A DNA stretch of 64,000 bases from Schmidtea polychroa (Eukaryota): NCBI GenBank assembly GCA_044892525.1, contig CM097885.1:9736001-9800000 (forward strand), in the 5' to 3' direction. The notes under the pieces were generated by a model. The model was not told the DNA's origin. It saw nothing but the letters and a program-made list of their open reading frames with translations, and made no database searches. The translations under genes and the position numbers were made by a program. Positions 45,041 to 45,601 of this stretch are shown in pieces (the first letter of the stretch is position 1; each line of letters opens with the position of its first letter).

Positions 45041-45601
45041 ATGGAAGAAGTAAAATCTATTTATCCAACATTGAATCCTTCTGCCCCTTCTGAACTTGAA
45101 GTTATGAGAGTAAAAGAATTTAAATCTGAAAGCTTACATTTAAAAGACTTATTAAAACATTATAAAAAAATTAAAAATAGATGGAATAGAGGAGATACAA
45201 CTTTAAAAATTATAGGTCTATCTTTAGGATTTGCATCTGCAATCTTGACAATAATTCTTCCTGTAACTTTACCACTTTTAACAATAGTTCCTGTAGTACT
45301 TGGAAGTATTTCTGTTGCAGATGGATTCTTAACTGAAATAGTTTCAGTGACTTACACTTCAAAAAAGAAAAGTTTATATCGAGAAGTATGTCAATCCATA
45401 GAATTAGGAATTTCAAAATTATATTTATTCCAATTGAAGGCTTTAGAAGATGGAGTACTTACAGATAAAGAAATAATGAAATCGAATCAAATAATTCAAG
45501 ATATAAAAAATGAAGTTATAAGATTAAAGACTGAAGGGAAGAGTACTACTAAGATAACAAAGAAGGATCAAAGAGAAAAATGGTTAAAGGATTCTTATTA
45601 A
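45041..45601 (+). CDS. Two-TM membrane protein with N-terminal YPTL/PSAP motifs
   Basis: Hydrophobic stretch IIGLSLGFASAILTIILPVTLPLLTIVPVVLGSISVA. N-terminus IYPTLNPSAP. Confidence 0.75.
   Translation: MEEVKSIYPTLNPSAPSELEVMRVKEFKSESLHLKDLLKHYKKIKNRWNRGDTTLKIIGLSLGFASAILTIILPVTLPLLTIVPVVLGSISVADGFLTEIVSVTYTSKKKSLYREVCQSIELGISKLYLFQLKALEDGVLTDKEIMKSNQIIQDIKNEVIRLKTEGKSTTKITKKDQREKWLKDSY

Follow-up and report, generated by a model that had tools for sequence, protein, structure and literature searches.

The window, a 64,000-nucleotide stretch of the Schmidtea polychroa genome, carries a Polinton in which one gene (45041..45601, +) encodes a protein of 186 amino acids, a predicted two-helix membrane protein with a SLATT-like core and a late-domain-like tail. 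Our results show that the two motifs of this tail are conserved under protein-level selection. Judging from the motifs themselves, we infer that the tail probably binds the V domain of ALIX and the UEV domain of TSG101. We give about an even chance to the further reading that the protein is an ESCRT adaptor for non-lytic particle exit, with a build like that of orbivirus NS3 and probably no kinship to it. ESCRT-driven exit of non-enveloped viruses is known; new here is that a Polinton is likely to use it, by way of a SLATT-like protein.

The Polinton and its predicted membrane protein

The element begins with a terminal inverted repeat at 37106..37404 (+), which starts AGTAGT, and ends with its counterpart at 52278..52576 (-), 99% complementary over 299 nt. 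A 6-bp target-site duplication, GAGAGT, lies on both sides (37100..37105, +, on the left and 52577-52582 on the right), which together with the near-perfect repeats and the AGTAGT ends indicates that the insertion is recent. The AG-type inverted ends and the 6-bp duplication, along with an integrase, a packaging ATPase and a double jelly-roll capsid protein that all score over their Pfam cut-offs, identify the element as a Polinton/Maverick. It sits within a FLYWCH/MULE transposase gene, the two parts of which lie at 36646-37105 and 52577-53458 (-). Elsewhere in the window, zinc-knuckle and reverse-transcriptase-like frames at 20207-22782 (-) presumably represent the remnant of an LTR-type retrotransposon.

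The double jelly-roll major capsid gene (37696..39036, +; PF21738, E 1.9e-26) is followed by a phospholipase A2-like (PLA2-like) domain fused to a retroviral-type integrase (39084..40514, +; PF08398 and PF00665, both over cut-off), an A32-like packaging ATPase (40519..41325, -; PF04665), and a protein with an adenovirus pX-like stretch (41341..41844, +; PF05829, E 0.003, which is below cut-off). The PLA2-like domain occupies residues 76-157 of the integrase fusion and the pX-like stretch belongs to the separate gene at 41341, whereas the description in PMC8502044 has PLA2 joined to pX. A probable minor capsid (penton) protein at 43237..44019 (+) has no family match and is recognized by its size, its place, and 93% conservation among copies; all 20 of the near-identical copies compared carry the PPxY-type motif PPNY. 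The product of 42726..43202 (+) has H/D/Q/C motifs and no family match in Pfam or PHROGs, and is a probable adenain-type protease. Directly upstream of the target, the gene at 44059..45018 (+) is called fibre-like from synteny, a weak PHROG match only, and a repeat motif that we assume to be of fibre type. Similarly, the gene at 47353..52209 (-) bears motifs that we take to be those of a protein-primed polymerase (Pfam finds zinc fingers only), and its homologs adjoin relatives of the target.

All 19 penton loci share the order penton-like, fibre-like, target, as does a second gene family within the genome. On metagenome contigs, relatives of the target lie beside protease, penton, and fibre genes (L133), beside integrase and pX-like genes (L132), or beside the polymerase gene (L128 and L130). 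Across loci L157-L176, identity to the copy described here is 93% for the penton-like protein, 68-78% for the protease, 67-70% for the fibre-like protein, and 67-79% for the target, and these unequal values make the element look mosaic. In the L057 copy, the fibre-like frame lacks a stop and reads through, in the same phase, to the target gene. Each of the 13 Polinton genes (37696-52209) has an A-rich start context (AAATG), and a T-run lies 10-20 nt upstream of most of them. The ATAAAC box is not enriched upstream of the target gene (3 of 78, against 3.1 in shuffles), and within the element it occurs before the ATPase only. Contigs from four runs, guessed to be RNA, partly cover the target gene and are not evidence of transcription; no sequence dataset carrying the gene is recorded as RNA.

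The target protein begins with MEEVKSIYPTLNPSAPSELEV. The open reading frame that the sequence-only reading had described, with IYPTLNPSAP at the N-terminus ahead of a hydrophobic hairpin, was confirmed at 45041-45601 (+). Its first motif, IYPTL (45059..45073, +, with YPTL at 45062-45073), is of the YPx(L/I) type recognized by the ALIX V domain, and its second, PSAP (45077..45088, +), is of the P(S/T)AP type recognized by the TSG101 UEV domain. A basic and conserved segment, HYKKIKNRW (45158..45184, +), precedes the hydrophobic helical hairpin (45209..45349, +), which consists of two predicted membrane helices with a short uncharged turn and is followed by the basic flank SKKK (45359..45370, +). 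Residues 57-103 are hydrophobic, reaching 2.47 on the Kyte-Doolittle scale (19-residue window), and residues 57-105 are free of lysine; 9 lysines lie in residues 1-56 and 15 in residues 106-186. Six K/R stand in the 15 residues before the hairpin and four in the 10 residues after it. The same pattern was found in 29 of 29 sequences checked, with no charged residue in the middle of the hairpin, 5-7 K/R before it, and 4-5 after it.

According to the positive-inside rule, basic flanks mark the cytosolic side. The basic flanks on either side, the uncharged turn, and the lack of an N-terminal hydrophobic stretch in the sequence predict that both ends are cytosolic (N-in/C-in), which would place the tail in the cytosol. 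A luminal tail, which the sequence-only reading had regarded as incompatible with its proposal, is the opposite of what the flanks predict. The protein sequence also has no glycosylation sequon. In two AlphaFold models (mean pLDDT of 64.6 and 69.1, with an N-terminus below 50), residues 1-17 are predicted to be disordered; one helix then spans residues 18-76 and another residues 82-137, with a turn of five residues between them and two short helices behind. The prediction of a four-copy complex of residues 17-168 gave a score of 0.00.

Tail motifs conserved under protein-level selection

We collected 120 loci from the host genome, of which 8 were duplicates; of the 112 distinct loci, 9 were dropped as broken or startless, leaving 103 copies with 83 distinct tails of 13-98 aa. 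Of these tails, 64 had YPx[LI], or 75 when V was also accepted at the last position (YPx[LIV]); 60 had P[ST]AP, or 69 when Ala was also accepted at the first ([PA][ST]AP); and 62 had both motifs. In 2,000 shuffles, the four single patterns had maxima of 7, 10, 3, and 4, respectively. When loci were picked by the core only (60 out of 150 matches listed, chosen as starting behind the tail; 52 usable), 47 of 52 copies carried the YPxL-type motif and 46 of 52 the SAP-type motif. The 12 other proteins of the element (4,446 residues) contain one YPx[LIV] and no [PA][ST]AP, and from their composition the expectation of both motifs in one 21-aa tail is about 5e-7.

The tails are otherwise hypervariable, with short repeated modules (SPEV-, PEWPVP-, and SSGYYS-like) that expand and contract around both motifs (L037-L126). 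The shortest full tails, of 17 aa, hold little besides the two motifs (e.g. MEVQYPKIPSAPTELEV). Seven different residues occupy the x of YPxL among the in-genome copies, and the positions of PSAP use 4, 5, 4, and 3 synonymous codons in 93 nucleotide haplotypes, with four Pro, five Ser, and four Ala codons among them. PNAP and PSCP also occur as in-genome variants of the second motif. Within the genome, PSAP borders directly on the conserved core, and conservation is just as high in the ELE that follows it, which counts against the ESCRT reading. Because the in-genome copies are kin and their counts are not independent, comparison across distant lineages is the stronger test.

Public homologs, which are 25-50% identical to the target except for two near ones, carry the YPxL-type motif in 28 of 30 cases and the SAP-type motif in 24 of 30. 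Thirty-nine of 41 homologs reach E <0.001 on the core alone, and of the first 13 all but one are without any 5-residue word in common with the target's tail, indicating that they were not selected for it. Among 42 representatives, 5 lack the N-terminal part and 1 has a tail of three residues; the remaining 36 fall into 12 lineages when grouped at 65% core identity. Searched blindly for patterns of three residues, these lineages returned [LIV]YP in all 12, YPx[LIV] with its sub-patterns in 11, and [ST]AP in 9. The next-best pattern was found in 6 of 12, and the best pattern in shuffled tails averaged 4.9 lineages with a maximum of 7. Conservation in homologs, a check set beforehand, was borne out across distant lineages, with counts above those of shuffles. 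In a tree of 39 cores, several branches of which are long and unsure, motif-bearing sequences occur on all branches.

The motifs also move. They stand 6-62 residues from the core across lineages, two lineages (P0022; P0032, P0038, and P0040) have them in reverse order, and in P0041 they overlap as IYPTAP. The back-to-back arrangement noted earlier holds for this copy and not as a general trait, as the gap between the motifs ranges from 0 to 23 residues in the in-genome relatives and is larger elsewhere. Six of the 12 lineages have strict P[ST]AP, three have A[ST]AP only, and three lack both forms, which counts against the ESCRT reading. The ALIX-type motif is steadier than the TSG101-type motif, and the first Pro of PSAP is frequently Ala; these two points, like the SLATT-like core, had not been part of the sequence-only reading.

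The SLATT-like core

We consider the core SLATT-like and probably of SLATT-like ancestry, although it is not a filed member of a SLATT family. None of the curated SLATT cut-offs is passed (P0001 scores 13.5 bits, against 41 for SLATT_1). With NCBIfam SLATT_1, 8 of 29 members and 27 of 58 matched weakly (best E 0.013), with SLATT_4 2 of 58 did (best E 3.9e-4), and a weak rival match to the C-terminal part of LeoBC appeared in 13 of 58. Over the whole host genome, SLATT_1 returned 8 weak matches, none over cut-off and all of them copies of the target gene; the control scan for this model gave a weak signal in 3 of 14 genomes. In its modeled structure, the target has the layout of SLATT proteins (NF033634, NF033632, PF18186, and PF14015), with a helix, two membrane helices, and a helical C-terminus, and its matches to them are weak and repeated. 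SLATT-named giant-virus proteins made up 8 and 7 of the best 50 Foldseek matches of the two models (E 0.02-0.9), and in Atlas the values were 0.91-0.93 for unnamed viral and animal clusters and 0.78-0.83 for SLATT families.

The top three Foldseek matches of both models are uncharacterized proteins of similar size from invertebrate iridoviruses (S6DF61, A0A5B8RH66, and A0A068QKD3; E 2.8e-4 to 2e-3), which differ in showing 14-18% identity and an rmsd of 9-15 in a comparison of folds. The target had no match over cut-off in Pfam or PHROGs, none under E 0.29 in a PDB sequence search, and no relative in IMG/VR scans. BAR domains and other helical bundles reached Z values up to 10.8 in VIA-align, which is below the meaningful level for such folds, and were rejected. 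Homology to gasdermins was also rejected, as no gasdermin matched the target.

SLATT genes have been reported from both adintoviruses and Polinton-like viruses (PMC8502044, bioRxiv 2026.06.19.733378, and 2025.10.09.676808). Viral SLATT genes have been described as putative pores, with no mention of a late-domain tail or a link to ESCRT in the searched text of PMC8502044, PMC12220804, bioRxiv 2025.10.09.676808, and 2026.06.19.733378, and the word ESCRT is absent from the main text of all four. Our literature search, which covered few subscription papers, turned up nothing that connects either Polintons or SLATT with ESCRT; two papers listed as naming both Polintons and ESCRT looked unrelated. 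Adintovirus GasderminX and Cupiennin resemble the target as small predicted membrane-active genes in the virion blocks of animal Polintons, and the target could be identical with one of these labels; GasderminX differs by a pX-like C-terminus that is absent in the target (PMC8502044).

Presumed host partners and a possible role in particle exit

P(S/T)AP binds the TSG101 UEV domain and YPxnL the ALIX V domain, the S/T and L/I/V exchanges seen here are those of late domains, and the joint presence of two motif classes is typical of viral late domains (PMC8402826). In TSG101, Y63, Y68, N69, and M95 belong to the pockets for Ala and Ser/Thr, and the last Pro provides most of the binding energy; the fixed part in the target family, S/T-A-P, is the part that fills the TSG101 pockets (PMC11670305). 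For ASAP the precedents diverge. Tacaribe virus Z can dispense with it (PMC3640512). The ASAP of tiger frog virus VP065L bound Tsg101, in a study in which only 3 of more than 20 motif-bearing iridovirus proteins bound (PMC4880917). The host genome contains two UEV loci (L031 and L032) and two ALIX-type loci. At the one UEV locus aligned with human TSG101, an exon that holds part of the domain only keeps Y68, N69, and M95 and has F at 63. The ALIX V domain is split over exons, one of which keeps F676, Y677, L680, and I683 (numbering from the alignment), where F676 is presumably a functional residue of ALIX.

The target is built like NS3 of orbiviruses such as bluetongue virus, a protein of a non-enveloped virus with two membrane helices, late domains (PSAP among them) in a cytosolic N-terminal part, a basic stretch before the first helix, and a cytosolic C-terminus, which binds the capsid in bluetongue virus (PMC6949946). 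NS3 serves non-lytic exit, the role proposed here for the target. It differs in having PPxY instead of YPxL and a glycosylated loop (PMC6949946) in place of the 5-residue turn of the target, which is free of sequons. NS3 also comes from a dsRNA virus and the target from an integrating dsDNA element. Homology was rejected as unlikely, as Foldseek E values of 0.32 and 0.79 and TM scores of 0.24-0.25 are at chance level, and NS3 is taken as an analogue. We presume a jelly-roll capsid for tiger frog virus, a second system for comparison. This dsDNA virus reaches ALIX by the YPxnL and TSG101 by the ASAP of VP031L/VP065L, although it is large and enveloped and has the motifs on separate proteins (PMC4880917). 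Finally, Toxoplasma GRA14 is a membrane protein with a PTAP motif next to YPx(n)L on a tail facing the host cytosol; it differs as a parasite effector that drives host-protein uptake and in that its tail is C-terminal (PMC8700025). The job of the GRA14 pair is to take up nutrients rather than to mediate exit, and PTAP alone mattered at the native site (PMC8700025).

In the exit mechanism that we propose, the hairpin would anchor the protein so that its two ends face the cytosol, and the tail motifs would recruit host ALIX and TSG101 and hence ESCRT-III. Scission by ESCRT-III could then occur wherever the protein gathers, at the endosome, the plasma membrane, or the nuclear envelope. By analogy with orbivirus NS3, the C-terminal helices might touch the capsid, and new particles would be pinched off in host membrane and leave without lysis. 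The presence in the element of a separate PLA2 domain for entry favors this reading. That no particles of the element are known counts against it. We grade exit below binding because the GRA14 pair has another job, no link to the capsid was found, and ATAAAC is not enriched upstream of the gene. The earlier proposal that a jelly-roll capsid virus may use ESCRT for exit is, taken together, partly supported.

The alternative that survives best, although we hold it unlikely, is that the motifs bind ESCRT to sort the target, or a host membrane protein held by it, into vesicles or multivesicular bodies, and that this sorting serves turnover, signaling, or host manipulation and not the release of particles. 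Such sorting would draw on the same motif conservation, on lysine-rich cytosolic parts as in ubiquitinated cargo, and on the non-exit job of the GRA14 pair (PMC8700025). The 67-79% identity of the target between copies, against 93% for the penton-like protein, would likewise suit a host-facing gene, with fibre and protease equally divergent. However, the fixed place of the gene in the virion block across lineages and the pairing of motif classes typical of viral late domains (PMC8402826) argue against it. Less probable still is a main role as a SLATT-type pore (viroporin) that brings about lysis or escape from endosomes, with motifs that do no more than place or restrain the protein. The SLATT-like signals in profile, fold, and language-model comparisons fit a pore, and the SLATT genes of cryptophyte Polinton-like viruses have been proposed as entry pores, partly because lipases are missing there (PMC12220804), whereas this element has a PLA2 domain. 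NS3 may itself be a viroporin (PMC6949946), which makes a pore compatible with exit. Against a pore as the main role, a membrane hairpin would seem ill-suited to a presumably lipid-free particle, and the middle of the hairpin is uncharged in 29 of 29 sequences.

That the motifs bind other partners is quite improbable. YPTL fits YxxL/I, the sorting signal bound by clathrin adaptors, PSAP fits PxxP, the SH3 ligand, and the frequent Ala in place of the first Pro could point the same way. Yet ASAP is no PxxP, the fixed part is S/T-A-P, and Pro follows Tyr in 12 of 12 lineages, with Yxx[hydrophobic] lacking that Pro confined to 3 of the 83 in-genome tails and 3 of the 30 from public homologs; a generic YxxL signal as the sole role was rejected on the fixed Pro. 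Chance matches in a low-complexity tail, for which one could cite that four-residue motifs are common and that in-genome copies are related, were refuted by the in-genome tails, the codon variation, and the blind search, with motifs kept over 12 lineages down to 25-45% identity despite moved positions and swapped order and with 12 of the first 13 homologs not picked through the tail.

More tentatively than for exit itself, we suggest that an animal Polinton lineage grafted late domains onto a SLATT-type hairpin, giving a dedicated exit protein and a quasi-enveloped stage convergent with NS3, which may extend to the related iridovirus proteins. If true, jelly-roll capsids would be budded via ESCRT, and the spread of Polintons, the transfer of which is treated in bioRxiv 2025.02.07.637071, between cells and hosts would be explained without a fusogen or lysis. 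Exit and host-to-host movement of Polintons would now have one named gene and two named host partners, and viral SLATT-like proteins are offered a function beyond that of a pore. The exit reading predicts particles of the element in vesicle fractions.

The host genome, which is AT-rich and 781 Mb in size, gave at least 150 scored matches to the target gene among 2,551 first-look candidates. Candidate copies number in the thousands, and their natural tail variants act like a deletion series. A second gene family, 42% identical (L037, L042, and L177-L180), lies in older, broken elements with identical gene order, and one of its members, L037, has two YP motifs without SAP.
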